From NCBI GenBank assembly GCA_003971905.1, contig RSEE01000025.1, positions 186,001-250,000 on the forward strand: 64,000 bases of DNA. The letters run 5' to 3'. The position numbers and the translations under genes were made by a program. Positions 578-61,038 of the stretch are shown piece by piece. The notes beneath the pieces are model-generated. The model did no database searches and was not told where the DNA came from. It saw only the letters and a list, made by a program, of their open reading frames with translations. How positions within the stretch are numbered: the first letter of the stretch is position 1; each line of letters begins with the position of its first letter. Source of the DNA: Moniliella sp. 'wahieum'. Taxonomy: Eukaryota.

Positions 578-643
578 TGAGCCCTTAGGCTTTAGCCTTC
601 AAGCTTCAAGCTTCAAGGTTCAACGTTCAAGCTTCAAGCTTCA
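578..643. repeat. 7-bp lattice array (TNA-N4)n, mostly TCA-AGCT
   Basis: Ten TNA triplets in exact 7-bp register: TGA GCCC TTA GGCT TTA GCCT TCA AGCT TCA AGCT TCA AGGT TCA ACGT TCA AGCT TCA AGCT TCA. Confidence 0.9.
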
Positions 644-1185
644 CGCATGCGTATACACACCACGCTTGAACAGACATTCTCCCTTTTTACTCCTGTCCTG
701 TCCTACTAGTATTATAACTACCCTACGTTACCGTAGCGCCTGCTCCCCGACCTGCTGCTGCGATTGGGCGGCCTACTATAGGTCTCCCTGTCGCTCTTGC
801 TCATGATTCGATGATGATTGGCACCGCCGACGAAGTCTAGCCTTGACAGCGTTCAATAATAGGGCAGTCGCGCTCTTTGGGGGTTCTCGTCTGTCCTTTC
901 CGCTGTGGCACGGGGGGTTCCTATATAATGCCAACAGAGATCTTTTGTTCTCAGAGTCTATACCTTTCTCTTCTTACTCTTCTCCTTCCTCGCCGCCTTT
1001 CACTTGAATCAGGCTACTCTCGCCTCGCCAGCCTCGCCAGCCACCGGACTCGGTACTTAGTACTTACCAGCCTCACCGTCGGTGACCTCTACCCCGCAAT
1101 AACACTTGCTATCTGACAAATTGTCAGGAAACGTGAGATGGAGGAAAAGGGGCAAATGGGTTGGATACAACTCTCCCCATTGAAA

Positions 1186-1600
1186 TCAGCGCTCAGCGCT
1201 CGCAGGGTCCTCGCCGATGGATCTCAGATCTGTGACATGCATCTCACAGTCCCTGCCCCAGCCGCTCTGCCCGGCAATCCGCACTAAGCGCAAGCATTTG
1301 TACGCGTTATACGTTACGTTGTGCATTACGCGTTACGACACGAGGTTCCCTAGACGCGCTGAGAGACCCTGAGGCGCTGAGCGCTGAGGCAGCGGCTCGC
1401 GTCGGTACTGGACCCCACTTTGCCCCGCTTCCGAGCTGGCGACAAGGGTAACCTAACCGGTAACCGGTAACTAGGTAACTGGTGATTAACGTTTTACGTT
1501 GGACGTACTTGAAGCTTGAAGCTTGAGCTTGAACGTCTTGAACGATCATCGATCATCGATCTCATCCCGTGGGCGTTACCGGCCTTAGCTCTAAGCTTAG
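1186..1600. repeat. cluster of TNA-palindrome heptamer arrays
   Basis: TCA GCGC TCA GCGC (~1187); TTA CGCG TTA (~1327); TAA CCGG TAA CCGG TAA (1454-1470); TGA AGCT TGA AGCT TGA (1510-1526); TGA ACGA TCA TCGA TCA TCGA (1539-1559). Confidence 0.85.
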
Positions 1601-2266
1601 CCCTACGTAGGCCGGTAATATGAGTGTGGCCGTGCGCAAATCCACAAGCCATTCGTACTGGCTGCCACTCCAGCTCAAGTTCTCAGTCTCTACATCCACT
1701 GGCAGGAGGTCACCGGTCAACCCCCCAAACCAATGTCTCCGGGTTCCCTGGCCAGCGGGGATGTTGACTGTGATCCTCCGGCTCCCACTCGGTAGACCCT
1801 CCATTGGCTTCTCCACGCTGCGGGTATCGTCCCACAGCGTGGCACTTCAAGCTTCAGGCTTCATCCCCTCTGTGTCCTGCATTCTCTCTTGTATGCCTCA
1901 CTTGCCCTGTGCCTAGTCCGGCCTCCTATGTAGATGCTTCGTACCTAGACCCAACTCTGGCTCCAATCCATCACCTTCTCCTCATCCTTCTGCTCAGCGA
2001 TGAGACTCATCTGGCTCCCCAGGGCAACATCCTAGGCCTTCCCGTGGCGCCGTACGTCCTCTTAGATGTTATGCGCTTACGCGCTTACCCTGGTTACCCT
2101 TTACGCGATACGCGGTACCACCTTACGGAATTACTACTGGTTATCGCCGACGCGCTGACGGCCCGCGACAAGGCTCCGCATTATTGGAGCTGGATAATCC
2201 AGAGCGCGATGTATGGGTTAGATGGGGATCGACACCCACAATCTTGCAGTGCCGGTCGCTTTCACA

Positions 2267-2287
2267 TCATGCATCATGCATCATGCG
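2267..2287. repeat. (TCATGCA)n heptamer array
   Basis: TCA TGCA TCA TGCA TCA TGCG; similar arrays at ~2513, ~31533, ~33249, ~40484 and 44581 (other strand). Confidence 0.85.
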
Positions 2288-3889
2288 TTCTCCAGCCACT
2301 GGCCAGGCTAAATGCTACAAGAAACTGCTGCAAAACGCAGGTTTAACCGCCGGGGATGTAAACCTGAAACAAGTATACCGCTAGTGTTCGATGTAATACC
2401 CAGGTGGGTGGACGGGTGGAAGAGGCCCCTTTCCAGTGCCTTTCCGCGCGTTCATGCGAATCATTCATCACCCATTCGCCTCATCGCCTCCAGCACCCTG
2501 CTTCCGAGTGCCATGCATCATGCATCGTGTGTCAGCACATCAGCACTGCATCAGCCCCCACCTGCTGTTCTAAATTTGTTTGTTGCTAGACATGTCGCAA
2601 GTTCACCATGCCCCGACAGAAGTGCCTGCCAGTATCGAGTATCCCAAACTAGAGTCGACTATATCCCCTACCATTCCTACCATTGACTCGACAATCCCGC
2701 GCCCCGTGCCACACCATTTGCCACCGTCGTCATAAAACCCCGATGTAAGATATCTGGTGGGTGGTAGGTCCTAGGTATCCACCAGCCCGCCACAACACAG
2801 CCACAGCCACAGCCACTAGCAACGGTGACTGGTGACTGGTGTACGTACTTGATAAGAAAATGAGAAAAACTGTCACGGGCGGGCGCCGCCAGGGGGCCCG
2901 CCCTGGGGGTTTTGGGGTACAATCCCTTAGGCGACGGTAGGTCGACTCACGGTAGTTTCGGGCTTAGGCTGGTTGGTGCGTCCGAGCGGAGCTAGGGACG
3001 AGGAGAGGCCTTTGGTGGGGCGGCTGCACGTGTGGCAAGGCTGCGTCTGCACCGGCTTGGGCCGTAGTAACGTGTCTGAAGCCTCCGAGACTTAGGGACG
3101 GGAGGAGGCAGAGGGGGACAACACTGCCTCAACAGAGACTGGGAATCGCCGCGACCAGAGGAGGGCTCGCGCGATTGGACTGACGAAGGGCTGGGGACGA
3201 GGTCGGAGGAGAAGTCGGACGCTAACAAGAGAAGCTGCCTGTACTGGATAAATTGGCTGGAAACGGGCAGGAGTCGGACAGGATAGACGGGAAGGCGAGA
3301 GGATGACGAGAAAGGACGAGAATGGAAGGTGGGGGAAAAGATCCCCATCAACCAGGGGTACAGGCAGGATCAAAAGGGAAACGGATACAAGAGGGGGTGT
3401 AGAAAGGAAGACATGTCAAAAGCGGGGTTGGTCGCCGCAGGCGCGACCGAGAAAGGAAAAGGAAACGGAACGAGGCGGCAGACGCCGCCACGGCATTGGA
3501 AGCTCGGTGGCCTTATTTAGGCCGGCCGACTTGGACTTGGGCGGGGGGCGACTATTGTCGCGCGGAGCATGGCCCTTGTGCCACCGCACAGGGTACAACC
3601 AACCATCATCATACTTGGTTGGCCTGCGGAGCACGCTCTACTGGGCATGTGCGGCCGGCGGGCCTTAGCTTCGGTCGGACCATCTCGTGTCCGCCGCAGC
3701 CCGTGACAAAAACCAGGGTGCACACCGTTTATAGCTAAGCCTCACGCGCAAGTGTCGCTGTTCCGTCGCCCAGCCACAAGCGACCGCCCGCAACCCAGCG
3801 TATCTCGGTGATATTATTTTGCCTCTCCAGCATGGAATGGTGGAATGGTGGAACGGTGGCTACGAATCCCCTAGTACTATTGGTGGCCT

Positions 3890-5010
3890 TGCATCAAGCT
3901 CATGAAGCTTATAGCTTGAAGCATTATAAACGCGCTGAACGTTTCGAACGCCCTCGAAGCTTGAAGCTTGAAGAGCTTGTGAAGCTTGAAGCTTAAAAAG
4001 TTCCAGAGCCTCAAAAGCCTCATCTCATCGATCATTTCAAATCTCAGCCTTCCTCCGGCCTCTTCAGGCCTCAGGCTCAGAAGCTCACACGCTCACACAA
4101 GTTCCCTGAGAGTGTATTGACACTCAGTGCTCGGTACGCAGTCCATTCCTCAGTGTATTATACTAGTGCCCGCAGTACGCCGAGCCTGTTGAGCTCACAG
4201 TCGCTCAGCCTGATGATCGATGAACGCTGAGAAGCGCTTAAACAGACTCGTACTCAATCGCACGCAGTCCAGTACTGATTGTACTGATTGGGGCTTTGGA
4301 CGCCATCCGGGTCTTGGCCTGTCTTGTGGCGTGTGACGAGCACGCGTGATCGGGCCTTCAGTTTTTTCCGGGTGCTGAGATGGTGGGTGAGTCGGTGAAT
4401 TTGCGATCGGAAGATCTGAGATACGATGATCGATGGTCTGTGATCGATGAGCTCGTTACAGTAGGGCGTAACGCGTAACGCGTAAGGGGGTGTTGCGGCA
4501 GATCTTATACGACGTGTCTAAGATCTAAGAAGCAACGCGTAACGTGTTGCACCCTAAGACTTACAAGCTTACAAGCTTAAGCTCAAGCTCGCTCAGCGCT
4601 CAATCGCTCAAGCTTGAACTTCAAGCTTCAAGCTTCAAGCTTCAAGCTTCACGCTCCTAAAGCCTAAGGCCCAACAGCAGCAGGGCCTCTCCCTAGCCTC
4701 CCATCGCGCAGCACGCTCAGTCACACGCCACACTGGGCTGGGCTGCAGCAAACGGGTGGTGCTGGTAGGGCTGGTAGCTATGAATAAGGCCAAGGCCTAA
4801 GGCTGGTAACCGGTAACCGGTAACCGGTAGCCGGTATCCCGAGCTGGAATGCAACGATAGAGCTTAGAGAGCCCAGAAACATGTATGTAGGTGTGACGTT
4901 TCGGGCGATACGAGTGTGGGAAGTATGTACCTACTCTGAGGCACTCAGTACTCAGTCAGTACTTTATTCAGCGCTGAGGAGCGCTCAGCGCTGGTGCTGA
5001 GACTCAGCCA
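3890..5010. repeat. dense ~1.1-kb mosaic of TNA-palindrome heptamer arrays upstream of the Crz1-like gene
   Basis: TGA-AGCT units (~3955-3995), TCA GGCC TCA (~4064), TGA TCGA TGA (4441-4450), (TAA CGCG)x2 TAA (4469-4485), TAA GATC TAA (~4519), (TCA AGCT)x4 TCA (4621-4651), (TAA CCGG)x3 TAG CCGG (4807-4834), TCA GTAC TCA (~4945), TCA GCGC TGA (~4968). Confidence 0.88.
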
Positions 5011-5277
5011 GCTCTCCTGTGCTCACAGCGTCCCCTCTGTGGCGCTGAGAATAGTCCCGAGGCCCCACAGGTCATGGACCAGAAACCATCTGCAACAACC
5101 ATTGCTCTTTCGCCTTCTTGTAGCACCTTACTTCGCCAGAAATACTGCATGGTATCAATCCTGCCTGGCCACCAGCCCTGACCCCCTTTCTTCGCTGCCC
5201 TTGCATCCGACATCCTGGTTTCTCCGCCCCATTCCAGCCTTCACCCCCCCCCCTCAGCCTGTATCCTCTTAACCACC

Positions 5278-6917: not shown

Positions 6918-9182
6918 CTATGCCTAAACCTGTCCTTACTCTCCCTGTCTCCCTATTTCCCGCCGCATCTTTCACCACTCCTCACCTGTTGCACCCTCCC
7001 CGCCTACCTTCACCACCCCCGTTACCGCCTTCTTCTCTTCTCTCTTGGTCGATACCCAGACCGTGCACCTTCCAACTCGGTGCGGCCCTAGCCTAGCCTT
7101 GCCATCGCTGCGATCCTGTTACATGCACTACACATTGCGCGCGGCAAGCAAAAGGGAGAAGCAAGGAGAAGGATGAGTTGTACGCGGGAAAAGGGGTGGA
7201 TTTTTGGAGGGATAAATTTGTTGTCGACCGTATCCGTTTCGACTTTTGCTGCTTGTTTTTGTCTTGTTTCTATTCGCAATCTGTCCTTTTACTATGCACA
7301 GTCGTTTATACTTCAGGTTGGGGGGAGGTCTGCCATAGAGTGTTCTCACTAGGATTCTCTCGGGGTTGAAGTTAGGGGCCGGGGTATAAACCTTTTGGAC
7401 GAAAAATTTGAGCTCTGTATGCGCACCGTATATGTCCCTCTTCAGAACCCCTGCTCGGGAGTATAGGGTGTGAGGTGGGAGGAAGAGATCCTTGAACAAA
7501 TGCGATTGCCAATATCATGGGGCGAGCCCCGATGTAGGACACCCCATCTTTCTTCCGTTTGGGGGCAGAAAAAGTTGGCTGGGTCAATCGGAGCCAAGCA
7601 GGATGTCTCGTTTCAGATTCCGAAGCCGAGCGGGTGTAAGGGCCGGGAAGATATCCCTAAGAGTTTGGGCGGCGGTCCTCGTGCAAACGGTGCGGCTCAG
7701 ACCCCTTGCGACCTGGAGCGGCTTGCGCTGTTCGCCAAAACGCGCTGAAGGGGGCCAGGAGCACAGGGCTAACGCCGCTTTACCGTTATATCACTATGAT
7801 CACCAGACTGAAGAGCTAGGGTTGTTGACAAGCACGGAGGTTAACGGAGTATAGAGTGGAAGAAGCACTGGCAGTCGTGCCGCCATTAAATTGTGGTGAT
7901 GAAGATACTCTGGGGGAAAGCGAACACATGAGCACAAAGGAAGGCGCAGCCGCGCGGCCAGCGCGGTGCCCTAGTGCTATAGCGTCTCAGAAGGCCGGTT
8001 GTAGGGATGCACGACGTATGGGCACCCTTTCAAGAGGTCGGCAACGATGAGGCCGAGGCCTGTAGCGTCTTGTATGAATTCTATTGTGGATGTTGATGCT
8101 TAGCTGAGCGCGCAGGCTGAGCGCTGCGCATAATATAACTGGAATGCCTAGAACTCGTATGACATAGTAGTATATGGGATTAAGCTGTTGGGACGGGAAG
8201 AGGATGCTGGGCGCTGAGGATGCTTGCTTGTTATTAGAGCCTCAAAAGAAGATACTGGTTGCAAGATGTGACTTGCAATTCCATGCGAAAATGGTGCATT
8301 ATTGTGGTTGACGCGGAGACGCTGAGAGGACGCTGAGCCTCCGCGCCGAGGAGAGAGTTTCGTTGCGCAAATGAGGCCATCGGCCTGTACGCTCTCTCGG
8401 CTTTGGACGATATACACGAATCGTCTGGGTAGCAGATCTTCGACAGGGCAAGGGGCATGGTGCATGGTGAGGCACCATGCACAAGGGTTAAGGTTAAGGG
8501 AGGGGATCTGAGTGAGAGACGCGAAAAAAGAGCCCATATTGCACCGCAATGGTTAATGGCAAGAGGCAACAAAGGTACAAAAAGGGCGCGCGTCAAGGTG
8601 TGACATGTACATGCCACATGCGACGTGTCAGTGTGACAATGTGTCCTGTGACATGTGACAGTGGCTGTCGGTGGGGGGGCTCAAATTTCAAGGGCTCAGG
8701 TTGGGGCGGTGCGGATGGACGGGGCCGAGGCGAAGGACACGCGCAGCATGGCGATGGAGGCGATGGGGAGGACCGAAGCGGAGACTCTTGGGGACAGAAT
8801 GGGGCGCTGACGCGAGCGGAAGCACAGCCATCGGGCGCCGGGCGGACAGCCATGCGAGCGTCAGGCGACTGAGTCGAGCAGGCGCATAACAGGGCGGAGC
8901 AGCGCTTAGCAGGCCCAAGCACCAGCGCGGCAGCGCACGGCAGCGCCCTGGCCGCGCACAGGGCCAGTGTCGGCGCGTGCCAGGCACGCACAAGCCACGT
9001 CGGCTGCTGTGCTGCTTCGTTTGTGCTCCGACGGGCGACCGCTGATCCGGTGTTCCTGGCTGCCGGGGGCGCAGGCAGGCGCAGCGCCAGCGCCCGGCCG
9101 CGCCCCTTCGCCTCGCTCGCCTCGCTGCTCAGTTTGCCCGTCGAGGCCGAGTGCCGGGTACTCACCCACCCACCACCTCCCC

Positions 9183-11067: not shown

Positions 11068-11151
11068 AGGTCCCACTGGGATTCGAACCCAGGTTTCAGG
11101 AAAGCGACGAGAGTCAGAATCCTACTTGCTAACCAACTACAATATGGAACC
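11068..11151 (-). tRNA. tRNA-Gln (anticodon CUG) with 11-nt intron
   Basis: Minus strand: GGTTCCA TA TTGT AGTTGGTTA GCAA G TAGGA TT CTG A [CTCTCGTCGCT] T TCCTG AAAC CTGGG TTCGAAT CCCAG TGGGACC T. All stems pair; oligo-T Pol III terminators lie downstream (A-runs on + at ~11060 and ~11008). Confidence 0.93.
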
Positions 11152-11302
11152 GCGTGAAAGCCCTAACGACCAATATGATTTGGAAGCGACACTTAGCAAT
11201 ACCCTCTTCTGTGTCATTTTTTTCTCGGTCACCCACTTAGATGAAAGCTAACCTATGGTTGTCCTTAGCTTCCTGAGATCTCAGGATGGATTCCAGGATC
11301 AA

Positions 11303-22618: not shown

Positions 22619-23861
22619 GCTTCGATGTTAGTGGATTGGAGCTTTAGTGGGCGATGAGGGGCGGCGATGGTGGCGGAGAAAAGGAGAAGAGGAACGGCTG
22701 GAGTGACTAGTACAGTGGTGCAGCGAAGAGCATCTGCCCTTACTCGCGTCACGCGTCATGACGCATGGCTGTTGGGCGCGATGGACGTACGATGGACGTT
22801 GGAGATTGCTGCTGATTTCTTTGTGGGAGCTCCAAGGCGCCAGAGCAAAGAGCCTCTTCGCCTTGTAGTTTGTGAGCGAGACGAGCGAGCGAGCGGAGGG
22901 GTCGATGTTGCGTTGGACAGCAGCAGGCTTGGGGGCGCTGTTCCGCATCCGCCGCGGCTGCGGCTGAGAGGAGCGAGCAGGGTCTGGACACACTGACCCG
23001 GTGCCTTCCCCACAGCAGTGATCTCGTGCGACCCACATTAGCCCCCAAGCAGCCTCAAACCCACTCTAGTTTAGTTGCCCACGGCTCGCTGTTGCAGCTA
23101 CACCGCCTCCTTACCATCCGAATGCTCGAGAGTACGCCAAACAGGTGGCATCAAGCCCATCAAGCGTGTTGCTCACATAGCTCACATGCCCTCACTAGCG
23201 TTCGCGTAGTCGATCGTGTGGTACTCGACAAAGCCATCAAGTTGTCAACTGTGCCTCGTCGGCCCGCCGGGTAGGCAAGGAAGCGCGTGCGTTCGTTTAT
23301 CACCCCCCTAGGCTGCCTGGCGGGCTCAGATCAAGGTCGAGCGCAAGGCACCAAATGGGATTTGGCTGGTGCCGCAGAAATTGGCAAGACGGTCTTTGAA
23401 CGGCTTGACCGCGGCAGCTGTGAGCGGGAGCTTACTTAGTTGTATAGAGCTGATAGCATCGGACGCCTGTACCGAAAATCCCGCTTCGGAGCCCGCAATA
23501 CCGGCACGAACGATGAGGAATGTATTGGTGGGTGTGCCTTTCCAGCGTGCGTCAAGATGAAATGGCTTTTGGGGATGGATTGGGGACCAAGGAATCACGG
23601 CGGAAGAGGGGCAAGAGATCGACCAAACGAAGCATACGCAGGCCTCGTTCGCCCTCTACCAAAGCTCGTTTACCATCGATTCTCCAAAAAAGGAAATCAA
23701 CCCCAGCTCCGCCTCGCATTTCTTCTAACATGCCCCCCATCCTTGCTGTCGATGCCACCCCCCTTTCAACATCACATCTGCCGTCCCGTTCCGATTTCCC
23801 CTGACGGTGTGGTATACCAGCATATGGATGATGCCACAAGAGAAGACGAAGGAGTGAATGA

Positions 23862-25779: not shown

Positions 25780-26479
25780 CCTTCTGCGTGGGGGGGGCAA
25801 GGTGGTGCCAGCGCCGTGAAGGGCAGTTGGCTTCAAGTTCAAGCTTCATGGACGAGCATACGCTTGGTCATACCCTTATCTAACCCTGCTGCTCTCAGTG
25901 CAACCCTACTACGCCGATCACGCTGATCGTGCTGATCGTGCTCAGGCTGAGCGCTGATCCTCCTTCAATTGTAAGATGTAAGCTTCAAGCTTGGCTTCAC
26001 GCTTCCCCTTCACCCAATATTGGATGGTCCCCGGCCCAAGCACAAAAGGGGGAGAGTAACCTACACTGCGATGGCACTCTATTCGTCCCTTGGCAGCGCA
26101 TCCATATGCTGCGGCGATGCTAAGAAATACACGATAGGTACCATTGTGAGGGACTAGGCTACTGAATTGAGGTCAACGGGGAGGCCAGTGGGGCCCTGAG
26201 ACCTGAGGTGGGCAAGCTATAGCAAACGACAAAATTCAAGGCGTACAAGGTGACCAAAGACCATTAGCAAGGCTTGGCACATGCACCAATACAGCAAAGC
26301 ACGGTCAAACAGGATGGACGGTACCCGAGCCAGAGCAGAGATAAGCAGGTTGGGTTTCACGTGAGGAGCAAAAGGGTGGAGAGCAAGGTTCAAGCCGAGT
26401 CGTGGGCCAGGACGTGCAGGAGACAAAAGAGTGTACGAGGCAAGCAAGCTGCCAGAGCGCTTGGAACGGGGCGATAGGA

Positions 26480-31160: not shown

Positions 31161-32619
31161 GGCCACGTGGGGGGGCGCGCTGGCCAAGATGGCAGCGATG
31201 GCGGCGGCAGGAGCGCTGGGGGAAGGGGCATCCAGCCGCTGGCAGAAGTTGTGGTGCTGTGGAGGTGGTAGTTGTTCGGGGGGAATTGAGAGGATGGTGA
31301 TGGTAGTTGTGGTGGTGGTGATGGCAGTGGCGACTGCGGACGGGCTGTTTTTTCAGGTGGTCGGTTGAGTTGTACGCTCCGGCTGAGCGAGCGCTGAGCC
31401 AGGGTGTGCGAATGCGAAGGCAGCGGGTCGCACCAAGGGCTGTGGTAGCACAGGAGCAGTGTGCGCAGCGACGCACGGGGGTCCACGCCACAAGTGACGT
31501 ACACCGGCCCCTGCTAGCTTGCTAGGAGCCTCGTCATGCATCATGCATCAGTACTGGCTGGCGCAGGAGCACTGCCCTGTGCCGGCACATGCCGATCCAT
31601 TTGGCCGCAGGGCTGGCGCCTGGCAGTGCCCCCTGCTTGAAACAGAGGTGCTAGCAGCTGAGCCCGCTGAGCATCTTCCTCCGCCTGCCGAGCGTGGCCT
31701 CACCGCCTCAGGCCTCATCACCTCCCCTCGGCCTCGTGATATATCGTGTGATACCTCCTCAGGCCTGAAGATACTGAGACTCAGTACCAGAAGTCCTGCA
31801 TCGTTTATCGCCCTCGCTACATTATAGCTTTTCTAGGCAGCTTTCGGGAGGGACGCACAAGGTGGGACAGATAGCTTTTGCTTGTAGGCTGCTGCCGCAG
31901 CCCAGAAGCAGAAGGCCGTGTGCGCAAACAGTCAACGCTGTACACGCTGTTCTCTTGCGCATCCTGTCCCCCCCGCTCCCCCATTCGCTCTACCTGGACG
32001 TTAGGTCTTGCCGCCAAGGGAACTGTCACCGGCCACTGCTCTCTCGCACGTCGAAGAGTGCTCCGTTCCACGGTAGCAATGACCAACGGCACAAAAATGC
32101 CTCCTAGCCGAATCGAACGACTAATCTTCGCATTACGAGTGCGACGCCTTACCATTGAGCCAAAGAGGCGTTTTTGCCGTCGGGTCATCGCAATATACTG
32201 TAGCCATATCATGGACAGAACTTAAGGCTGGAACAAGGAAACGCTGCGCCCTAAACCGATCCGTTCGTCCTGCGTGTGCTGCTTGATAGCCCCAATCCCG
32301 CTGAGGAACCAGGGGAATCGCCAGGAGGTCAGGACCCCCGGTGCCGCCATCCGTTCCCATACCCGAAGAAGCGCGTGTGGACACAAATGAACGTAGTAGA
32401 CTTCCGAGCGGTGGCTGGTGACCGGTGAACGTTGAACGTACTGAACCATCTCCATTGGACTGAAGTCAATTCCTTCCAGTTCCCAAGCATCTTGCCCGCT
32501 GTCTTGGTGGCATAGTATCCTCGCGTCGTCAAAAACAAGGGGTAAAAAGGGCACTGCCCTATTTAATTTCCTGTTCCCAGAAAGAAAAGAATGGACCAAT
32601 GTGACATGTGAAGCGCGTG

Positions 32620-33470
32620 AAGCTGGAAGGATGGTCGATGGAAGGGGTGGCATGGTGACACAGTGACATGGACACGTGATGCTGCGTGTCATGCGTGCCT
32701 CAAGTCAACCTCGGAGGGCTTGAAGCTGGAAGTGAAGATTCAACGTTCAACTTCAACTTGAAGTTCAAGAGCTTGAGAGCCTCAGGCCCAGCTATCATGC
32801 ATGCTGGGCATGGCAGTGAGCGAGTGAGCTGTGTTGCATGTGATCGGGTGAGAATTGCGGTGTGCCTGGACAGCTGCTGGCTGAGGCACTGAGGCACTGA
32901 GCTGCACTATGCAATGCACAATGTGGAGCAGCAAGGGGCGAACTGCTCCCTGGGTGCGGCGCAGGGGGGGAAGGTTAGTGCTAAGCCTTAGCAAGGCTTA
33001 GGGCTAAGGCTTAGCGCTAAGGCTTAGCGCTTGCAGCTCCAGCTCTCTCTCGGAGAGATCTGAGATCGATGAGAGCTTGAGGAGCTTAAAGCTTGAAGCT
33101 TGAGCTTGAGGGGTCGTGCCGTGCCGTGGGCCTGGCGCGGCGCCCGGTAAATTTCACCAATCATTAATTTAATCAAGCTTCAAGCTAGTATGATGTGGTG
33201 ATGGCGCGATGACGCATTCATGTCACATGACCATGTCACGCGCTATGCATCATGCATCATGCACCATGCCCAATCTCGCACCTGTCAGGCACGGTGCCAC
33301 TGGTCGTGTCGGCGCTGGATCGACAGAGGGACTGAGGTACTGAGGTACTGAGGAGTGGCCGGTGACCTCACCCGTGCGCGTGCGGGAGGGAGGCGTGATA
33401 TCACCCATTCGCATGACTAGATGACCGATGATCGATGAGGTGCTGGACGGGTGACGGTCACGTGTGACGC
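32620..33470. repeat. cluster of TNA-palindrome arrays upstream of RhoGAP gene
   Basis: TCA ACGT TCA (~32740); alternating TTA GCGC TAA GGC units (32975-33030); TGA AGCT TGA (~33094); TCA TGCA TCA (~33250); TGA CCGA TGA TCGA TGA (~33422). Confidence 0.8.
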
Positions 33471-38029: not shown

Positions 38030-40727
38030 AGCTTTGGGTCTTTTTTTCTGTGACACACGTTCTTTCTGCTCCCTGGTCCTTACCCCTTTTTATTGTATTG
38101 GCGCAGGGGGGAAAGTCTTGATCTGCCGTTTCCTTACTTACGCGCGGAGGCTTTCCCCGCTGTCGCTCGAACCCTGTTGACTGCCTCGCGACCCCCACCT
38201 TGAAGCTTGATGGCCCACCTCAAGGCTAACAAGACTTGCTTGACGTCTTGAACTTGACCCTTGACGACACTATTATGCACATTGGACTTTTCGTCTACCC
38301 TTTCTTACCCAGTAGCCGGCCTATGAGCTTTGAGCGCTGCGCCCTGTTTTTTTTGTCTGGGCCTATTTGTGGGTCCCACCTGGTTACCGTAACCATGCAG
38401 AAAAGACTCCTCTGGTTGTCAGCCGGTCTGGCGCGACGACGGATGCGAGTGCATGTATTTATCTCACCCTTCTCCGTTTGGCACTTGGTCGGAAGTGGGG
38501 AAGGGGCGTGCCCCATTCGTAGTCGAGGTACGATCCCAACAGTAGCATACGGCTATAGGGGCGAGAATCTGAAAAAGCTGGTAAGGGGGGTGAGAATATC
38601 AAAACTGTGGGAGCCCTCTTTTGTCCAGATCTCAAAATAAGCTCAAAAAAGACATATATAGTTCTTCGTCAACGCCGTCAGCATGTCTCTCCCTAGTGGG
38701 CCATCAAACCGAAGGAGACTCAGACAAAACCATGCGAGGGGCCAAATGGGGAACAGGCACAATTGAGAGGTCATCTTGCGCGTGTGCATCTCGAGGCTCG
38801 ATGTGGCTAGCCCCCCCTTTGAAAAAAGAAAGGTTCGTGCATAGTACGCCAAAAATGGCCATTTGGCCCATCTGTGAGGAATAATAGGAAATGAGAGGAG
38901 GAAGGCAAGTGTATAGGGGAAAGAGAGATATGCCAAATTGGGGGCTATAGCGGGGCGAACAGGCAAGAGTGTTACATCAAGTGTAGATGCATGGAACTGT
39001 TGGGTACGAAAAGCCACAAGCCTCAAGTTGGTCGACTAACGAAAACCGTTTAGTTCTTTTGTCCCTACATCTTTCTGCTCTAAGCCTCCATCCCCGCATG
39101 CGCGATCACAGTGGCTCCCATTCCGATTCACTGGCATTGGAGGAGTATATAGGAGTTTAGATCAACAGTGAGCGTACGATAGCAGGCAAAAAGCTACAGT
39201 ATGATCCCAAAACAATGACGTTTATATCCTTAACTTCACTGATGGTGTGCCTGCTGACGGCTGCGCATGGGCCCACCTTTCTTTCTTCCTCATCCATATA
39301 ATGATTTCCTTCCCTCTGCTCTCCCCCTCATCATCGTTCTGGAGAAAAGCTAACGAGCGTTGTGGATGTTGGCATCCTAGCTTTCCTAATACTAGAGAGA
39401 CCCTCTGCGATGCTGGCTGTATAACAAGCCCCTGCCCTCTGTCAAAACGCACATGCGTCTTGCTTTGTGCTCCTATATGAGTAACTGAGTGTTCTGCCCC
39501 CCTTGATATTGATGAGCGCTGATCCCCGCCGTGTCTTCTTTCCACGGACGGCATCCACCGCTTGACTCGATCCCTCGTTCTCCCCAGCGCTTGTGACTTG
39601 TGAACCATGTGAACAACTCTCAGACCAGTTGCTTTTTCCGTCAGTATACTCAGTTGCGTCCATCTGATTGGAGCCAGTGGTTGTGGTTATGGCGCAACAG
39701 TTTCCAATAAGTTTTGCAAACGCACACTTGCCGTCAGTGCCCGTACATGTGGTGAACCTTTTTGTGGCGCGACGGATGAAGAAACGACCCCAAAGGATAG
39801 GGGGCCACCACGGAAGCGGGTTGAGCGTGTTGAACACGTCGAACATTGAACGTTGATGCATTCATGATGATGAGATCCCCCCAAGCCTTCTGTGCATCTG
39901 AATATTGATATGTCAACGAAATGCGATGTGACAAAAGGAATGCCAAATACCGAGTGATATCGATTGGTGGGGGCCTTTCCGAGAGAAAGATTGTGGCAGC
40001 GTAGCAGGAGGTGCGAGACAGAAGGTTGATGAGGACCTTCAGGCGTCAGGTCCTACTCAGTACTCACCTCCGCCTCAACGTTGAGAAGAAGAGAGCAGGG
40101 AGAAAGGGTGAACTCTAATATTTAGTCCATAAGAAAACACTAGTATGTAGGCTCTGCTGCAGCGAAGAATGGGCTGGCCAAACCCCACAGGACTATACTG
40201 CCCAACAGGACAGTGCTGCCACGCCCGGAGTCGGGCGATGTCATGCCATGCAGCGAGAGGGCAGCAGGGGGGCAGTCGGTCACCCATTCGCAACAATATT
40301 AAACAAGACATTTGCATGTATATGGGGCGAGTACTACACTAGACAGGGTAACTCAGGGAGGGTGAAACGAGACTGACATCAAAGTTGGATGGCACAGATA
40401 TCCGTTTGGGCATGGACGAAGCTTGGCACCTTTTCGTTTGACTGTCTCGTCTTCGCATGGCACACATTGTCCATCATGCATCAACATGCATCATGCATCA
40501 TGTTGAACATGCACACACATCCCTCAATCTTATCTCAGATCTCAATACCATACTTGCCAGATATGCATACAACGCTTATAACCGTCGGGCCATTTTGTGG
40601 TTTTGCATATCCAACAAGATATGCTTTTTCTGAGGTTATTTTTTCCTCGCGATGATCTATTGCCCTTTTAGCTCGAGGTTTTTCTTCCCCCTCCTCACCT
40701 TCCCGACACTCTGTCATCTGCCATCAT

Positions 40728-40743: not shown

Positions 40744-40805
40744 CAGCACCACCACTCCGCTTACCACAACCTTAGCGACGGTCTATAGATCTACTATGGC
40801 CCATC

Positions 40806-44219: not shown

Positions 44220-44625
44220 ACGCTCTCAGATCTCACTACTACTGATGAGGCTCACCAGCAGGCTCAGCCGCTGAGCCTCGGCAGTGATGCTCATCCACAT
44301 CATCGATCATCCCTCTCATCCCTAGGATCAGAGTCTGGGACCTCCTCATCGATTCTGCCACAGTAGGCCTCAGTCCCTCAGGCTTTCATCGATCATCCTC
44401 CCCCCAGTGCTGGCCCTCTCCGGCTTCAGGGCCTTAGGGGGGGAAAGCTGTGAGTTTAGTGTGCAATCCTCATTTGACCCCGCAGCCGAAGACCTTTACG
44501 CGTATGATACAGGCGGCGTATTAGGCCCTCGTCTTTTGTGCCGTGTGAACAATGTGTGAGCCTTTTGGGACGGATCGCCATGACGCATGATGCATGATGC
44601 ATGATGGCATGGCACGCGTGACATC
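44220..44625. repeat. TNA-palindrome heptamer cluster
   Basis: TCA GATC TCA (~44226), TCA TCGA TCA (~44300, ~44386), TGA CGCA TGA TGCA TGA TGCA TGA (44581-44604). Confidence 0.75.
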
Positions 44626-49243: not shown

Positions 49244-52171
49244 TTACCCTGAGAGCCCCGTCCGCTGGGCTGGACCGGCTTCCACATCGCTGTTGCCCAT
49301 ATCAGCTGCGTCCGAATTGAGGGTATGCGCATCCGTCTCGGAGCCGTCCGAGGGGGACTGGGCCATAGCCGAAGCAAGCAGTGTGCTTGTCGTCTTCCTG
49401 GGCAGGGGACATATCGTAAGGAAGAGGCATGTCGGCCGTGGCGCGATAACGATCCGCATTGCCCAAATGCTCGTTCTCCACACGTAGAAACATCCACTGC
49501 CACCGCCGCAGCATCTCGAGCCAAGCCACTAGCAAAGCTCGTGCCAGCCCACTGGACAATGAACTAGGGAGAGGAATGAGGTAAAGGAGCCAGGAGAGAC
49601 GGAGGACCAAGTCGCTCGCCATGGCCCAGTAGTACACAGGCCAATGTTCATAGTACATTAGTTCTGCACGCAGCAAGAAATGGAATCGCTTGCCCACCCG
49701 GTAGGGTTGACCGTCAGACCCAGACCGGGCCGTGTCTTGCCTAAAGACCAATCCATCAATACATCCCAAAGGCCCGAGTAGGTCGAATTGAGTAGTGCGG
49801 CACAGATCCAAAAGCCAAGTCCGGTTGGACCTGATCCCATCCAGCGCCAGTGAGCGTACGCGTAGGCATTGAGGATGCTGGCTGTGTACTTGCCACCATT
49901 GGCCAAGTGAACCGTTTGCCTCGAATCGACCAGCGGCGTAAGCACTGGGTTAACCGGATCAGGGAGGTAGCATCGTCAAGCCCCCGTCCAACGGCTCGTA
50001 TTCGCATCGCATATTCCATCCCAGCATGGCTCCAAGTCCACCCCCCCTGACGGTACTGGCATTGCATCAACCATAGAGTGGACAATGTAAAGGTCAAGCT
50101 AGTGCCAACATCACCAAGCATGAAATCAGAAAACTGGACCGCATAGGACGTAGGTACCAAGCGGCTGATAGAACACGGAGAACAGCCTCGCGGAGCCAGC
50201 GACGGGTTTCGGGCCACAATGCGCCCTGGGACGAAGATGACAAAAAGGGCAGAGGCCAACCAGAGAGCAGGCCAAGCCGTGGGAGGGATGGATGACGGTG
50301 GCCCGGCTCATCCGGATGGAAAACGAGAGTCGCGCAGCCAGAGCAAGTGAAAGCAAGAACCATGCCGGCAGTTCAAACGATTGGTGAGGATCTAACGTGG
50401 ACCGTGGATCCCATTCAAAATAAACGGCGCGTTGATACGATAGTATTGGAACGCTAGGCGGCACACGCCAAAAAGGAAAGCAAAGGTGGTGGGCAGGTAA
50501 AAGGCAGTGTAGACGCGCCAGAGCAGCTCCCATTCAGGTCCACGGACCAGGGGGTCTATCTCCAGTGCATTCCCCACCGCATCCACGGTCATCGTTGCTG
50601 CCAGTCCCGTTGCCATTCCGGCACGGAACACTGAGGCATAGTGGGTTCGGGCAGCCGAATCAAAGCCACCAGTCACACTTCGCAAGCGCGCCAATGCCCG
50701 CTTGCGGTCCCCCTGTTCAAAGTAAGCTGTGAACAGCTCCTCAGCCGAGATCATCAGATCATCGACTTTGTGCGAAGTGTAAAGTGGGGAAGGCTTAGCC
50801 TGAGCGGCAAGGTAAGCGTCTGATATGCCATGAATACCGAACACTTTGCTTGCCTTCTTGAGAATCTTGACAAAGCCGGTGCGGTTGAGAATAGCGTAAT
50901 TTTTGAGGATACAGAAGCCGCGGTAGAGTTCAATCATGGCATTTTGAGTTTCTTGGCCGCGGCCCACGTACGCTTCTGGATCCCGGCTCTGAACCGCAGC
51001 CACATTGTCGCTCCGCGTTCGCCATCTCAGCAATAATGTGCTCCGCCACCGTAGCAGGCACATTATCCAGTGCTGTTACCCACGCTGTTCCTCCTCGTCG
51101 TAGATGGTGGTTACTCGACGAAGAGGAGCGTTCTTCGCCGTCTCTGCCCTTTTGGGGCGTCTACGGGGGGTGCCCGCGCTACGCCCCGGTGGGTCTTGGC
51201 CGGGCTTACCCAAAGGTTTGGCTTCCGAGGATGCCTGGGCGGAACTGCGAGGTAATCCAGGGACGAGATCCTCAACGAACTGACGCATCTGGGTCATGGC
51301 ATTGTGATTGGGAGCGTGGCGCTTGAACGCACGGCGGTGATCGACTAGTTCGCGCGAGCTGACGAGCAATCATGGCGAAACGTTGCCTCAAACTCCGCCT
51401 CGCGTTCGAGGTAGAAGGTGGTAATTTTGTTTAGTTCCGAGTCGGACCGGCCAAGAATGCGTTCTGGATAGTCGAAGTGCGCTTCGACCAAATTGCGATA
51501 TGCTTGATGGCTGCCTCTTGCGCTGGGTCCACTGGGACCATCTCGGAGGGTGGCGAGGAAAAGGAGGCATCGTCGGAGGCTATAGGGGTCGATGTGCCCA
51601 TCGGTCACAGAAGGCATGGTGGGTGGATGAGGGCCTCTCCGCATGCTACGGCAGTAGGAAACATGCTGCTGTGATGGGAGGCGGTGTGATAAGGCAGAGC
51701 GCCAAGTGGAGACCATGGCCGAGTCAGGTGGTGGGATGTGTAGAGGAGGGTGGAGCGGGGACAGAGCAGATAGCCTCCTCAATCGTCATGCGGTGTTTTG
51801 GCCAAATCAATGGGTGGTAGATCGGCAGGGACGTTGATTGTGGGAGAGATTAAAGGAGAGGGCGCAGCCACGTGGAGAAGTAACCTGATGCGCCAGGGCT
51901 CTGGGTACCGTCTGAGGCAGGTGTGCTGGGCAAGAGGGGTTGGTGCTCACTCGATGGCCCGAGGCCGCTAAAGAGTAAGCTGGCGCGGCGGAAAGTGCTC
52001 CAGGCGGGAGACCGGTGCGGAGGCCGCGAGAGCAAGCTTACGTTGCGCAACAATACGCTGAGCCCGGCGGCCTTGGACCTGCTTGATGAGCTTCTTCAGC
52101 CCCTTGTAGTCGAGATAGGCACGCCTCCACTCAGGCTGCGCGTTGTCCTCCAGGTAGCGGCCAAACTTCAT
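49244..52171 (-). CDS. SYG1: SPX-EXS domain protein (Syg1/XPR1/PHO1 family phosphate exporter); frameshifted
   Basis: MKFGRYLEDNAQPEWRRAYLDYKGLKKLIK and ELYRG..LKNYAILNRTGFVKILKK (SPX); VQFSDFMLGD..SL, RLTQCLRR, HLANGGKY, YSGLWDVLMDWSL, LEMLRRWQWMFLRVENEHLGNADRYR (EXS). Confidence 0.92.
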
Positions 52172-52694: not shown

Positions 52695-52788
52695 CTGCCT
52701 GCCGTCCAGGTTAGGTGCTCAACGCTGATGCTTTGAGCGCACGAAGGCAGCTAGCTGCAGATTGCCGTCAGCCAACCTACTCGCCGCC

Positions 52789-53587: not shown

Positions 53588-54931
53588 TTAGTTGTCGAGT
53601 ATACTGTTGTCGCTCAGGTCACTTTCATTATCGTCCAGATTGTCAGCGCCGTCGCCGTCGTCGTCGTCGCCGCCGCCACTGATCGCGCCGTCGGGATATG
53701 CAGACGGTTGTGAAGCGTTCGGATTGGAACCGTCTTCGCTTCCACTTTCCCAAAGACCATGATCTGAATCCTCCTCGCTTTCTGATTCCTGGCCCGAGAG
53801 GGCCGAAGAGGACCTGCTACCAAAAGCACAAGCAGTCAGTCACCGCACTCTGTTGAGCAAAAGGAATGGGAGCAAAGGCCATACACTATCTGGACTGCCC
53901 AGCCTGGTTTGTGCCACGCCGGAGAGCTTAGACTTAGGCGGGCTAGCCCGGGATCGGCCAGGGGTAGGCTGCCCTTCTTGTCGACTTCGATCGTGTCAGC
54001 AGTGATGGAGCTAGAGGTTTTGAGCTTGGGTCTGGCTCGGTCTTGGCTCTTGACACTCTCTGTCCCGCTGGGAGCTGGTGACGCCCGCGCGCTGGCCACA
54101 TTAGGGTTCAAGGGCGAGGCAGCAAAAACGGTACTGTTTCCTGCACGAGACGTGATCGAGTGCACGGCTAAATATGGGACGCACGATGGTTAGTATGCTA
54201 AAACGAAAGGGGAGGGGGACCTACTCTTTTTTTGGCGGCCCCGGCCTCCTCGTCCCGAGGCATCGCCCCGTTTGGAGTTCGGCTTGAGTAAGTGACCGTC
54301 CGGGGCGCGGATGCGTTTGCGAGCTTCCAATGCAGCTTGAACTCGTGGGGTGGATAAAAGGAGACTTGAGGTGTCGGGAGTAGCATTGGGGGTGGGTGAG
54401 TTGCGGGCAGAGAGAGCCTGCTTGCGAGCAGCACTGGCTGCCTTGCCGCTTGAACCAATGCCAAGGCACTTGGCAGATGAACCGCATAACGATTGCTACT
54501 CACTTGGCGCGAGCATACCACACATTCAAAGAGAGGGTTCTGGGCATACATGTCGGGTTTGCCAGCTTGGCTGCCTGGGGGTGACAACTGACGTGGTGGC
54601 CGACGCAGCAGCTGAGTTGGGGGACGTTGATCCACTCGAGGAAGGCGGAGGTCCGCTTTTGAGCGTCGCGTCTTGGGAGCTCGACGAAGCAGCTTTGGAG
54701 GTATCTTCGGTACCAGCCCCACGGAGCATATGCCCAGAGAGAACAGAGCGCACCGCTGGCCGCACGTATGACACACGTCCCCAATCGTCTCGGCGCGGCG
54801 GCGCTTGGCAGTCAACCGCCAGTTGACAGCAGACTGTGATACCATGTCGCGAACCAGGCGTCGTACAGACGTTTGCTTAGGCGCTGGATACCGCCTGAGG
54901 CAGCGCCATCCAACGCGGTCTCGTCGGCCAT
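53588..54931 (-). CDS. SGF11: SAGA deubiquitination module subunit Sgf11 (introns near ~54170-54225 and ~53815-53885; frameshifted)
   Basis: N-terminal helix (IQRLSKRLYDA.LVRDMV), VCHTCGQRC, then the Sgf11 zinc finger FECVVCSRQVSSNRYAVHLAKCLG (joined frames); acidic C-terminus ending DNSILDN-stop. Confidence 0.8.
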
Positions 54932-56694
54932 AGCGGTAGGCTTGGGAAGGGATGTCGGTCAGGTGGTGGTGCGTTCGATCAGGTAAAATCACCCGCACTG
55001 CGCCGCAGTGCGTGGGGAGACCTGAAACAATGAAACGAGAATTCTGGTCGGGCGCAGCTGTCAGCCGCAGAACAGACGCGTGGGGAAGGCAACGATGTTA
55101 CGCTGGGGGCGATGGTGGTGGCAGTGAACGGCCAGAGTGACCCGTGGAACCTGGGGCCAGCAAGAAGGCGAAAATGAGTAAAGGTGAAGTTCCTAGTACT
55201 ATAGGGAACAAATAATAATACTATCACCGACGAACCAACAGTTGATGCATCATGGCTCTGACCATCATCGTGTCAATAAGCAGCCTGGTACAGATCCCGA
55301 AGTGATGCTCAGGTTTGACGCGGATAGGAATGTGGCTACGGCGGGATGGCCCGAGACACTGCCTTCAGTGTGTTGCGCCCGCGTGCGACTTTGAGAAGAA
55401 GGCCAATGGAGACTCGATCCATGTATAACACAGGCGGGTGTTCAACAGAAAAGGCACATGAAAATGGCAGGCAGATACATCGCGGCCGACGCTAATAATG
55501 TCCTATGGTGTGTGGTGCACGTTTTCATGCGATATAGGAGGGCTGATGGAGCGGGTTGGGGGATATACCAAGCACATATTCGGCAACCTCAGGGAAGTTG
55601 CGGGAGAGGACCGGCTAGCTCCCAAATCTATCTATTCTCGGCGCGTTGTCGCTGTCGTCCTACTATTAAAACTCTTCGGACGTGGTTTAATACTTCTCTC
55701 TAGCAATGGAAGCGATCGAAGCTGTGGACAGAATGCTGCTTCGTATCGCTCCTTCTGCTGAATTGCCTGTCAGTAGACCAACAACCCACTCTATATGACT
55801 CGGGATATCCGTTACGTATTTGGCGACAGGTTGTGTCCAGCACCGAGACTGGCGTTTTGCTGAAAACTCCATCTCGGTGGGGGGGAGGGGTGTATACATA
55901 CGAACGGAGGGATCATCGAGATCATCTTCGATCTCTGGTTCGGCCATCACCTCGCCCTCCTCGTTTTCCATTGCACATCGAAGCCCAGGCTGTTCACTGG
56001 ACCGCACTCTTCCTCCCACCCATCTTTGATGGGGGGGGGGGGGAGCGCGAACTTCCAAAACGAGTGAAGTGGATGGGCGCCTTGGACTTTTTGTTCGGGG
56101 GGCGCTGGCATATCTTCACATTATGGGTTGGCCGGAGCGCCGGAGCGCTGAGCTGTGGCTATTAGAGCGCTATGAATAAACGGGGAGGTGGAGAGTAACC
56201 AGAGTCGCCGAGTCCTCTCGATTACTGGGACAGAGGTCTGAATACGGTGAGCGTCCAATGTGTGTTCCATGTTACCGTACGAAGTGCTGGCCTCGCACGC
56301 TGTCGGCGTCCCTCGGATGGGGATGTCTAGACTGCCTCTGCCACAAACGAGCCGCAGCGTCAAAACGACCAACGATCATGCATTCGGGTCTACTATCGAT
56401 GATCATCGATCAAGGACGATCGCTTATCGCTTTATCGACTTACCGATGTCTATTTGCGAGTTACCCCGATTGAATATTGAGCGCCAAGCTAGTGACCGGT
56501 GAGTGAAACAACGCGCAACACGTGACAGGCAGGACACGACACCAAGCGTCGCTGTCTCCAGCCCTAAGTTCTTCCGATCAGTTCCATTCACCAAGTGCCA
56601 AATGCGGATGGCATAGAAATACAGGAGAATCAGCTATCTGCAGGGCGAGCTGTGTGGATGGTATGCACAGATGCCGCATCAAGGAAAGTACCTG

Positions 56695-59607: not shown

Positions 59608-59943
59608 GCTAAATGGGGCGGCTGAGAGAAGTGTTGGCGGTGCAAGGCGGACTCAATGGAGGAAGTGTGTTGGAAGGCGGAGCGGCTGAGACGAAATGAG
59701 GGTGGCAGCGATGAAAAGGGGGGCGGGGAGTGGGTGGAGGCGGACACGGGGCGCTCGCCTGGAACGCAAGGTTCCGTGAAAGATGGTGAGCGTAAGCCGA
59801 AGGGCAGAAGCTGGGCGCGTGGGTTAGCGAGCCGAGGCGGACGAAGGTGAGAGCAAGGCCGCTGAGAGCGCCAATGGACGTACCACGCTCGGCTGAGGCC
59901 CAGACCCAGGCTCGGGAGTCTGCAGAGGCACAGGCACAGCCTC

Positions 59944-60013
59944 GGGGAGGAGGGGGGGAGGGGGGGGGAGGGAGGGGAGGGGGAGGGAAGGGCAGAGGGC
60001 AGGAGGGAAGGAG
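59944..60013. repeat. G-rich polypurine tract (G-quadruplex/H-DNA potential)
   Basis: GGGGAGGAGGGGGGGAGGGGGGGGGAGGGAGGGGAGGGGGAGGGAAGGG..., more than 8 G-runs with 1-2 nt A loops. Confidence 0.8.
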
Positions 60014-60667
60014 CGGCGGGGTGGCGATGGGGAGAGCGAAAACGACCCGCAGCCCGAAATCGAAAACGAATGGCGGCGGGCGGAGCAAGGGGCAAGCAGC
60101 GCCGCCTGCCTGCGGCCTGGTGCCTGCGTCTGGCGGCTGCCGCCGTCTGGGGCCACGCTGGGCGACCTGACGCTGACGCATGACGCGTGACGGAGCGAGC
60201 GAACCCTATGGCAGCGGCGCGCGTGGTGCACACACTGCTCCTGCGCAGATCTCCGCCCCGTCACACATCAGCATCACGCGCACACGCCGCATGTCACGCG
60301 CAGATCATCAGACCCAGGCACCGCTGTCTGGCACAGACCCCACGCCGCCGCCGCGGAGGCGCTGGGCGGCGTTGGGCGGCAGCGCAGCCTGCGCCCGTTC
60401 GCGCCAGCGCGCACCAGCCCAGCACCCAGCCGACACCATGTCTGCGCAGTTCCGGCTGAGCCTCAGGATAGCCTCACCCCTCACCGGTTCCAGCCTCATC
60501 GGCCTCATCGACATCCATCATCCACTCATCCACTCATCCACTCATCCATCTGCCGCGGACACCCACCATTGGGCTCATCGATCGCACATCCGTCCTCCCT
60601 CGGCCTCAAGCTTCAAGCTTGGAGCTTGGCGCGCAACCTGGCGCAACGCGGGGAAGGAGCGACGCGG

Positions 60668-60713
60668 GCTGTGGCACTGCTGTGGCTGCTGTGGCTGCTG
60701 TGGCTGCTGTGGC
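60668..60713. repeat. 9-bp tandem repeat (GCTGTGGCT)n, ~5 copies
   Basis: gctgtggcactgctgtggctgctgtggctgctgtggctgctgtggc. Confidence 0.85.
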
Positions 60714-60772
60714 ATGCGGCGGGCAGGGCGGCGATGGAATGGGGCAAGGGGGCAGTGTGCGCCCATGGGAAC

Positions 60773-61038
60773 TAACGGGTGACCTGTGACCGGTGACCGG
60801 TGACCCCGGCTGCGTGTGACGCGTGACGGCGAGCGCTGGCTGAGCGAGCGAGTGGGGAGCTGCGCAAGGCTGCGCGCTGTTCCGAGTTCAGCCTGTCGCT
60901 GCTGCGCCGCAGCATCATGCACATGCCCCTTGTCTCCTGCCCCATCACGCATCACGCGACCCGTATCGCGCGTGACGCGTGACGCGTGACGCGTGACATG
61001 TGACATGTGGCATGTGGCATGTGGCACGTGACATGTGA
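60773..61038. repeat. TGA-lattice heptamer arrays with spacer switching
   Basis: TAA CGGG TGA CCTG TGA CCGG TGA CCGG TGA (60773-60803); (TGA CGCG)x3 (TGA CATG)x2 (TGG CATG)x2 TGG CACG TGA CATG TGA (60973-61038). Confidence 0.92.

Follow-up and report, generated by a model that had tools for sequence, protein, structure and literature searches.

The non-coding DNA of a 64-kb segment of the Moniliella sp. 'wahieum' genome (contig RSEE01000025.1, positions 186,001–250,000; hereafter the window, 64,000 nt in length and 57.6% G+C, to which all counts refer and from whose first base positions are numbered) carries a large number of lineage-specific heptamer microsatellites, in which each unit consists of a T-N-A node followed by a 4-bp palindrome, XYY'X' (primes denoting complementary bases), and is self-complementary except at N. 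Microsatellites as such are well known; the strict grammar seen here, with a period of 7, a TNA node, a self-complementary core, and a seed of fixed phase, is so far undescribed, and the suspicion in the initial annotation that the repeats belong to no known family is borne out in that no description was found in open-access full text, either by words or by array strings. We regard the repeats as most likely the by-products of an insertion mutation that recurs in non-coding DNA, rather than as functional elements.

The extent to which the grammar departs from chance is clear from simple counts. The pattern TNA-palindrome-TNA, which we refer to as a link, occurs 94 times in the window compared to 7.55 ± 2.64 times in 100 dinucleotide shuffles (maximum 14), so that the comparison with shuffled DNA proposed in the initial annotation comes out strongly in its favor, and each of the sites named there carries at least one exact link or array. 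The base N is the same in both nodes of 82 of the 94 links and different in 12, and links with identical N are found only 2.20 times on average in shuffled sequences (maximum 5; 40 shuffles). The signal is confined to TNA nodes, with the other 15 node types of the form aNb yielding 0–12 links, and other geometries are near chance in comparison to shuffles, including TNA with a 2-bp palindrome (11 vs 8.05), TNA with a 6-bp palindrome (3 vs 0.75), TNNA with a 4-bp palindrome (2 vs 0.57), and TA with a 4-bp palindrome (12 vs 3.27). The autocorrelation of TNA has the predicted peak at lag 7, at 1.97x overall and higher for the individual triplets (TCA 3.96x, TGA 3.52x, TAA 6.31x, TTA 4.00x).

The period is likewise specific. 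Exact arrays of at least two copies number 73, 58, 43, 12, and 10 at periods 5, 6, 7, 8, and 9, respectively, such that period 7 stands well above the fourfold drop per added base. In 31 of the 43 exact period-7 arrays a 6-bp palindrome and one further base make up the unit, and every one of these 31 palindromes has the form A....T, whereas self-complementary units are absent from the exact arrays at period 6 (0/58), period 8 (0/12), and period 9 (0/10). With a looser length cut, self-complementary runs make up 74 of 169 at period 7, none of 52 at period 8, and 3 of 47 at period 9. The rule is obeyed, or missed by one change, in about 37 of the 43 exact arrays at period 7; the longest exact array is 33 nt, and Tandem Repeats Finder (TRF) reports up to 7–9 copies.

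The cores are drawn from most of the available palindromes, with 13 of the 16 possible 4-bp palindromes in use and CTAG, TATA, and TTAA unused. The initial annotation had noted that at least 11 of the 12 G/C-containing palindromes occur, and this number is exactly right, CTAG being the missing one; it had not seen the all-A/T palindromes used, and here a correction is due, as both ATAT (3 links) and AATT (2 links) are present. The AT-only palindromes and CTAG are nonetheless under-used, and XY dinucleotides AA, TT, TA, and CT together account for none of the 12-mer loci described below compared to 10.7 expected. The node is also biased: the N position holds C or G at 48 of the 54 12-mer loci, whereas the figure for background TNA sites is 69%.

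The basic product is a direct repeat of 5 nt whose two copies are separated by 2 nt, these being the neighboring two bases in inverted form, so that the whole is the 12-mer TNAXY-Y'X'-TNAXY. This 12-mer has 96 matches on the two strands compared to 0.30 in shuffles (maximum 2; 30 shuffles), corresponding to 54 loci compared to 0.35 (20 shuffles). Among exact runs at period 7 whose unit is self-complementary with an outer A..T pair, 20 are of 12 nt, 15 of 13 nt, 8 of 14 nt, and 23 of 15 nt or more, and we estimate from the total run counts that about one such run of 12 nt would occur by chance. The phase of these runs is fixed, since 16 of the 20 runs of 12 nt read Y'X'TNA-XY-Y'X'TNA or, as the reverse complement, TNAXY-Y'X'-TNAXY, compared to 5.7 if all seven phases were equally frequent, and the 11- and 13-nt runs are mostly the 12-mer minus or plus one base. 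When the 37 runs of less than two copies are measured outwards from the 10-mer, only 4 end where it ends, 16 continue for exactly 2 nt on a single side, and in 12 the added bases total 3 nt, whereas random flanks would leave the 10-mer mostly unextended. The modal locus is thus a fixed-phase 12-nt seed and not a two-copy duplication, and most loci are single 12-mers. Outside of the runs neither single 6-bp A....T palindromes (136 vs 141.4 ± 12.1) nor TNA-centered 7-nt palindromes (140 vs 153.8 ± 11.9) are enriched, which argues that the palindrome and the duplication arise together.

The identity of the palindrome in 17 of the 20 pairs of adjacent units within the 15 multi-link chains points to growth of the longer arrays by copying of whole units. 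The copying does not need the rule, because units that break it are amplified as well; by our reading of the array list, a single substitution separates the unit from the grammar in 6 of the 12 period-7 arrays that do not conform, and these units are repeated all the same, for example TGG-CATG x3.3 (61004–61026), TGG-AGCT (60616–60629), and TGA-CTGG x2.6 (2824–2841). In the remaining 3 of the 20 pairs the palindrome switches in register while the node is kept, and all three switches are symmetric double changes. An intermediate of such a switch adjoins it in the array at 597..647 (AGCT, AGGT, ACGT), and the in-register change of CGCG to CACG to CATG at 60966..61041 follows CpG transitions, in an array that also contains an amplified mutated node, TGG.

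Decay is as evident as growth. Where the two TNA nodes are identical, the 4 bp between them form a perfect palindrome in 82 cases, have one pair disrupted in 25, and have both disrupted in 21, and the 54 perfect 12-mer loci are accompanied by 43 separate one-change loci (9.05 ± 2.73 by chance), or about 54:34 above chance. A ratio this close to 1:1 fits constant birth and neutral decay, and would carry no sign of selection or correction. As single strands, the long arrays are predicted to fold as hairpins with 6-bp stems, single N.N mismatches, and a TNA triloop, with z-scores of −4.10 (4619–4653), −5.08 (597–645), −2.71 (4805–4836), and −2.65 (60966–61041). A 24-nt array (z 0.11) and the 12-nt seed (0 kcal/mol) fold no better than shuffles, and hairpins can therefore be relevant to long arrays only, and not to the birth of a locus.

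The loci are located outside of genes, as the initial annotation had claimed. None of the 54 touches the 10,819 bp of Pfam-supported open reading frames (ORFs), where 9.1 would be expected under uniform placement; the gene blocks at 10–22, 26–30, 34–38, and 46–52 kb contain no loci, and 53 of the 54 lie inside roughly drawn intergenic zones (20,782 bp), of which they cover 808 bp or about 4%. Many are upstream of genes, although the TCA and TGA forms are intermixed and have no relation to gene orientation. Arrays of the same unit share no homology in their flanks, and neither the 500–5100 region nor the window as a whole contains larger duplications or mobile copies, only the arrays themselves being repeated; nor are there terminal inverted repeat (TIR) elements in the window, all TIR pairs being arrays. 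From the unrelated flanks and the lack of larger repeats or elements with inverted termini in the window it follows that the loci arise in place. The principal loci are as follows.

597..647: TCA-AGCT x2, TCA-AGGT, TCA-ACGT, TCA-AGCT x2, TCA-CGCA; the one-change AGGT lies beside the switched ACGT
1454..1474: TAA-CCGG x2, preceded by TAACC-TAACC (a 5-nt duplication without the palindrome half)
1508..1561: TGA-AGCT x2, decayed units, then TCA-TCGA x2
1708..1719, plus strand: isolated 12-nt seed, GG-TCA-CCGG-TCA; does not fold alone (0 kcal/mol)
2265..2287: TCA-TGCA x2
3956..3996: two arrays of TGA-AGCT
4466..4485: TAA-CGCG x2
4608..4655: TCA-AGCT x4, the longest exact array (33 nt); 7 copies by TRF
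4805..4834: TAA-CCGG x3, then TAG-CCGG
8599..8660: decayed TGA-CATG array; TRF period 7, 9 copies, 70% matches
22745..22758: two copies of TCA-CGCG
25830..25957: TCA-AGCT link and TGA-GCGC 12-nt seed, upstream of a PNGaseA-like gene
31534..31554: TCA-TGCA x2
32417..32439: in-register switch, TGA-CCGG then TGA-ACGT x2
33083..33263: TGA-AGCT, TCA-AGCT, and TCA-TGCA arrays, upstream of a LIM/RhoGAP gene
40472..40544: TCA-TGCA arrays and TCA-GATC seed, upstream of an iron-permease-like gene
44224..44606: TCA-GATC seed, TCA-TCGA x2 seeds, TGA-TGCA x2 array
56401..56502: seeds TCA-TCGA, TGA-ATAT, and TGA-CCGG
60606..60633: TCA-AGCT x2, then TGG-AGCT x2, a copied rule-breaking node
60773..60828: TGA-CCGG x2 and TGA-CGCG seed
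60966..61041: 11-node TGA lattice, CGCG x4, CATG x2, then TGG-CATG x3, CACG
61943..61956: two copies of TCA-ACGT

Several other repeats are found in the window. In the heptamer-array spacer near the right end there are two near-perfect non-palindromic arrays, of CATCCACT (x4.8, 60512–60548) and CTGCTGTGG (x4.1, 60677–60713), from which we conclude that slippage also acts on ordinary units in the 60–61 kb spacer. A G-rich tract of about 70 nt (59944–60013; GGGGAGG-like) with a quadruplex-type composition is located directly upstream of the array-rich 60.2–61.0 kb spacer. A few arrays of period 8 are related to the grammar, their node being 4 nt long or a base being added, namely TACA-AGCT x2.5 (4560–4579), TGAG-GTAC x3.5 (33326–33353), and ATCA-GATC x2 (50748–50763). 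The 13-nt unit AAGGCTTAGCGCT, with about 5 copies at 32971–33031, is self-complementary but for one base (AGCGCT plus AAG-G-CTT) and is the sole self-complementary unit found among periods 10–21; it may be two heptamer units fused, minus one base. TA-flanked 8-bp palindromes (TACGCGTA x3, TAGTACTA x3, TACTAGTA x2; at 23995, 44497, 49857, and elsewhere) are in mild excess, with the 12 vs 3.27 in shuffles given above, and show no pattern as a Tc1-like comparator.

As a control we used public metagenome contigs that match (TCAAGCT)3TCA, comprising at least 120 loci and 417,223 bp from many organisms. Among the matches listed there are 25 links with a palindrome other than AGCT (0.06/kb) compared to 64 in the window (1.0/kb), and those in the control have mostly AT-only cores in AT-rich contigs. 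Similarly, 12-mer loci without an AGCT core number 8 in the matches listed and 44 in the window (0.019 vs 0.69 per kb), and are thus 36x rarer. No shared grammar is seen among the matches listed, and this scarcity indicates that a lone (TCAAGCT)n array elsewhere is an ordinary microsatellite, and that a rule shared by many units is particular to this genome.

The window contains eukaryotic genes split by introns, encoding DPH2, S8e/NSA2-like, Med12, PNGaseA-like, and LIM/C1/RhoGAP proteins, together with iron-permease-like, SPX/EXS, Sgf11, and GNAT genes. The DPH2 gene (11.3–13.2 kb, minus strand) has an ORF whose top match overall is at 72%; its best species-named relative is that of Tilletiaria anomala (54%), followed by Ceraceosorus, Malassezia, Microstroma, and other Ustilaginomycotina. 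Because the best named DPH2 relatives are all of this group, the window is, judged by protein similarity, nuclear DNA of a basidiomycete (Ustilaginomycotina) from a thinly sampled smut-related lineage. Two tRNA genes (11068–11151 and 32098–32169, both on the minus strand; Rfam scores of 52 and 57 bits) are each located about 120–320 bp from a link (at 11274 and 32419, respectively). A 9-nt repeat, GCTCAGCCC, is present in about 15 copies with 73% matches at 20154–20286, in a long ORF block downstream of the Med12 domain, and is probably a coding low-complexity repeat. A food-metagenome run, X1 (0.05 share of words), yielded 13 short contigs that lie mostly on 2656–3887, with none crossing an array with unique flanks. 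These match the noncoding-looking 2656–3887 segment, in which there is no Pfam match, at 90–99% (for example 2 differences in 199 at 2910–3108), and leave most of the 500–5100 region uncovered; they may be low-depth sequence from this species or one close to it, or reflect a conserved or repeated element.

The initial annotation proposed that the repeats stem from a shared generative process, such as fold-back or template-switch synthesis, repair, or element footprints, or else from a structural code, as opposed to being binding sites for one factor. A mutational origin is supported by the grammar of the seed, the copied rule-breaking units, the decay ratio, and the unrelated flanks, whereas pure fold-back is not: copying across a node would place the complement N' at the next node, and N is the same in 82 of the 94 links. 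Two further candidates were set aside, namely deamination of CNG to TNA in the manner of repeat-induced point mutation (the GC-rich cores are intact) and 4-bp duplications of the topoisomerase II type (the period is wrong).

We tentatively favor a two-step origin, in which a sequence-directed 7-bp insertion scar, formed by a staggered break with a hairpin-type addition, is followed by ordinary slippage. In the first step 7 nt would be inserted at TNAXY, with N mostly C or G, to give TNAXY-Y'X'-TNAXY; the chemistry would be that of a 5-nt staggered break with both ends filled in, one end having earlier been a covalently closed hairpin that was opened at a distance of 2 nt from the tip, as in a P-nucleotide-type addition, and the enzyme would prefer T-S-A (S being C or G). 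Unit-wise slippage or unequal exchange would then copy the 7-nt unit to give arrays of up to about 7 copies, a step that the TNA-triloop hairpins of long arrays may aid, and point mutation would erode the arrays, including through CpG transitions of the CGCG>CACG>CATG type. There are precedents for parts of this scheme, in that flanking-DNA hairpins of hAT, Transib, MULE, and RAG are opened by host enzymes and joined with footprints (PMC5499845), and five-bp duplications are a hallmark of Transib and RAG transposition (PMC1131882).

A number of observations count against the two-step origin. The evidence comes from a single 64-kb window, and among the 147 ORFs of at least 128 amino acids in the window there are no transposase or nuclease domains, nor is there a TIR element. 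The inverted part of the seed is rigidly 2 nt, with analogs having 0, 1, 3, or 4 inverted nt giving 8 vs 4.97, 6 vs 0.97, 0, and 0, respectively, and it is copied from the XY side only; the mirror form TNAXY-N'A-TNAXY has 15 matches, 13 of which are strings of the main form. In V(D)J joints, by contrast, hairpins are opened at variable positions, and in V(D)J and hAT footprints either flank can donate the inverted copy, which varies in length. By our count only about 11 of 31 long arrays are within 2 nt of the seed phase, and they are thus less phase-locked than the 12-mers. We know of no hairpin-forming transposon that prefers T-S-A. Finally, Transib and RAG favor GC-rich targets (PMC1131882).

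The alternatives differ in which of these observations they can accommodate. Hairpin-favored slippage could in principle act by itself, with 7-nt duplications of any kind arising and those with self-complementary units persisting or expanding because the folded loops, of a 2-bp stem with a TNA triloop or longer, escape repair, and the 12-mers would then be remnants of contracted arrays. Palindromic loops reportedly resist mismatch repair in yeast (Nag and Petes), long arrays do fold (z −2.65 to −5.08), 17 of the 20 adjacent pairs are homogeneous, and the under-use of AT-only cores and CTAG (0 vs 10.7 loci) is accounted for. We nonetheless regard slippage alone as unlikely, since palindromic units of other lengths should gain equally and are not seen at periods 6, 8, and 9 (0/58, 0/12, and 0/10), and stability does not predict an A..T outer pair in 31 of 31 arrays. 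The 12-mer and the 24-nt array fold no better than shuffles and rule-breaking units are amplified, and the phase lock of the 12-mers (16/20) is unmatched in the long arrays that would be their ancestors. An improbable alternative is that the repeats are excision footprints of a cut-and-paste transposon, with a 3-bp TNA target duplication and 2 nt left from each terminus (TNA-XY|Y'X'-TNA) adding 7 bp in each cycle. Tc1-type footprints consist of the target duplication plus terminal nucleotides, and PIF/Harbinger targets are TNA-like (TAA/TTA); for the two types the target is TA or TWA and each element family leaves constant terminal nucleotides. Such events would explain the sum of 3 and 4, the symmetric T.A target, an N that is free but copied (82 vs 12), and the in-register switches (3/20). 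But 13 palindromes demand 13 terminal dinucleotides, and the bare 10-mer is not the modal form, occurring in 4 of the 37 short runs compared to 16 with 2 extra nt; the preponderance of C or G at N (48 of 54 loci) is unlike the TAA/TTA of PIF/Harbinger, the window has no transposase in its 147 ORFs and no TIR element, and the homogeneity of 17 of the 20 pairs suits copying rather than independent events.

It is still less probable that the arrays constitute a functional or structural code, as protein-binding or cruciform promoter signals, or as three-frame stop barriers built from TGA/TAA at period 7. All of the loci are intergenic with many upstream of genes, and it follows from the sequence that three TGA units at period 7 put a stop in all three frames; yet 13 variable cores and a free N speak against any one factor, and the near parity of one-change and perfect loci (34 vs 54 above chance) gives no hint of maintenance. 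Furthermore, TCA and TGA forms occur together irrespective of gene orientation, most loci are single 12-mers that are too short to fold, and a code is not needed to account for the repeats. As for a sequencing or assembly artefact, the sole matching read set (X1) gave only fragmentary contigs, but the arrays vary in unit, length, and decay, avoid coding DNA (0/54), and contain in-register CpG-type transitions; we know of no basecalling error model that yields such arrays, and consider this explanation very improbable indeed.

Microsatellites are usually seen as the outcome of unit-blind slippage, and the presence of one strict rule over nearly all heptamer repeats of this region, whatever their unit, points to a specific mutational mechanism. 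The lineage could conceivably have a previously undescribed sequence-directed break-and-repair or transposition activity that inserts exactly 7 bp (a 5-nt duplication with a hairpin-type inverted copy of 2 nt) at T-S-A sites, although we judge this rather doubtful. Its rough rate per site would then be on the order of that of point mutation per base, given that the roughly 21 kb of intergenic DNA contain 54 perfect loci and that a change at any of 12 bases abolishes a locus, and the scars, multiplied by slippage, would continually supply new intergenic DNA. If confirmed, a specific mechanism of this kind would represent a new case of a lineage-specific mutation signature that makes repeats de novo, and the arrays would offer a ready set of hypervariable markers for a poorly sampled fungal group.

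The footprints of Tc1/mariner and PIF/Harbinger elements (target duplication plus terminal nucleotides) resemble the repeats in that a symmetric short target with a palindromic 2+2 nt filler would give TNA-XYY'X'-TNA, but here there are 13 fillers, N is mostly C or G, and the 2 extra nt of the seed are unexplained by such footprints. The hairpin footprints of hAT, MULE, Transib, and RAG (PMC5499845, PMC1131882) share a direct duplication of target length (5 bp) and a short inverted copy of the adjacent flank, the inverted copy Y'X' being present in every seed by definition of the 12-mer. They differ in that the inverted part here is always 2 nt and on one side, the target is T-S-A, and no element or transposase is found in the window; among fungi, Transib is listed for soybean rust only, as of 2005, according to PMC1131882.

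In vitro 'ab initio' synthesis by a polymerase with a nicking enzyme can produce short repeated palindromes with a nickase site in every unit (PMC10520511), and these products resemble the constant TNA node within a self-complementary repeat. That synthesis is however a test-tube reaction with thermophilic enzymes, and nothing here shows that the fungus has such a nicking enzyme or primes DNA synthesis in this way. Bacterial heptamer repeats, including the cyanobacterial short tandemly repeated repetitive (STRR) sequences and the Xanthomonas GGGAATC repeats, are alike in their period of 7, intergenic location, many units per genome, and hairpin potential (PMC4692102); those are prokaryotic, whereas the present repeats are in a fungus with eukaryotic genes (DPH2, LIM, RhoGAP, Med12), and 31 of its 43 arrays have a self-complementary unit. 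The repeats are most like microsatellites in general, with which they share head-to-tail copies of a short unit, homogeneous arrays, the copying of mutated units, and a non-coding location, and from which they are set apart by the one rule, T-N-A plus a 4-bp palindrome at period 7, that governs at least 13 units and has a 12-nt seed as its modal locus.

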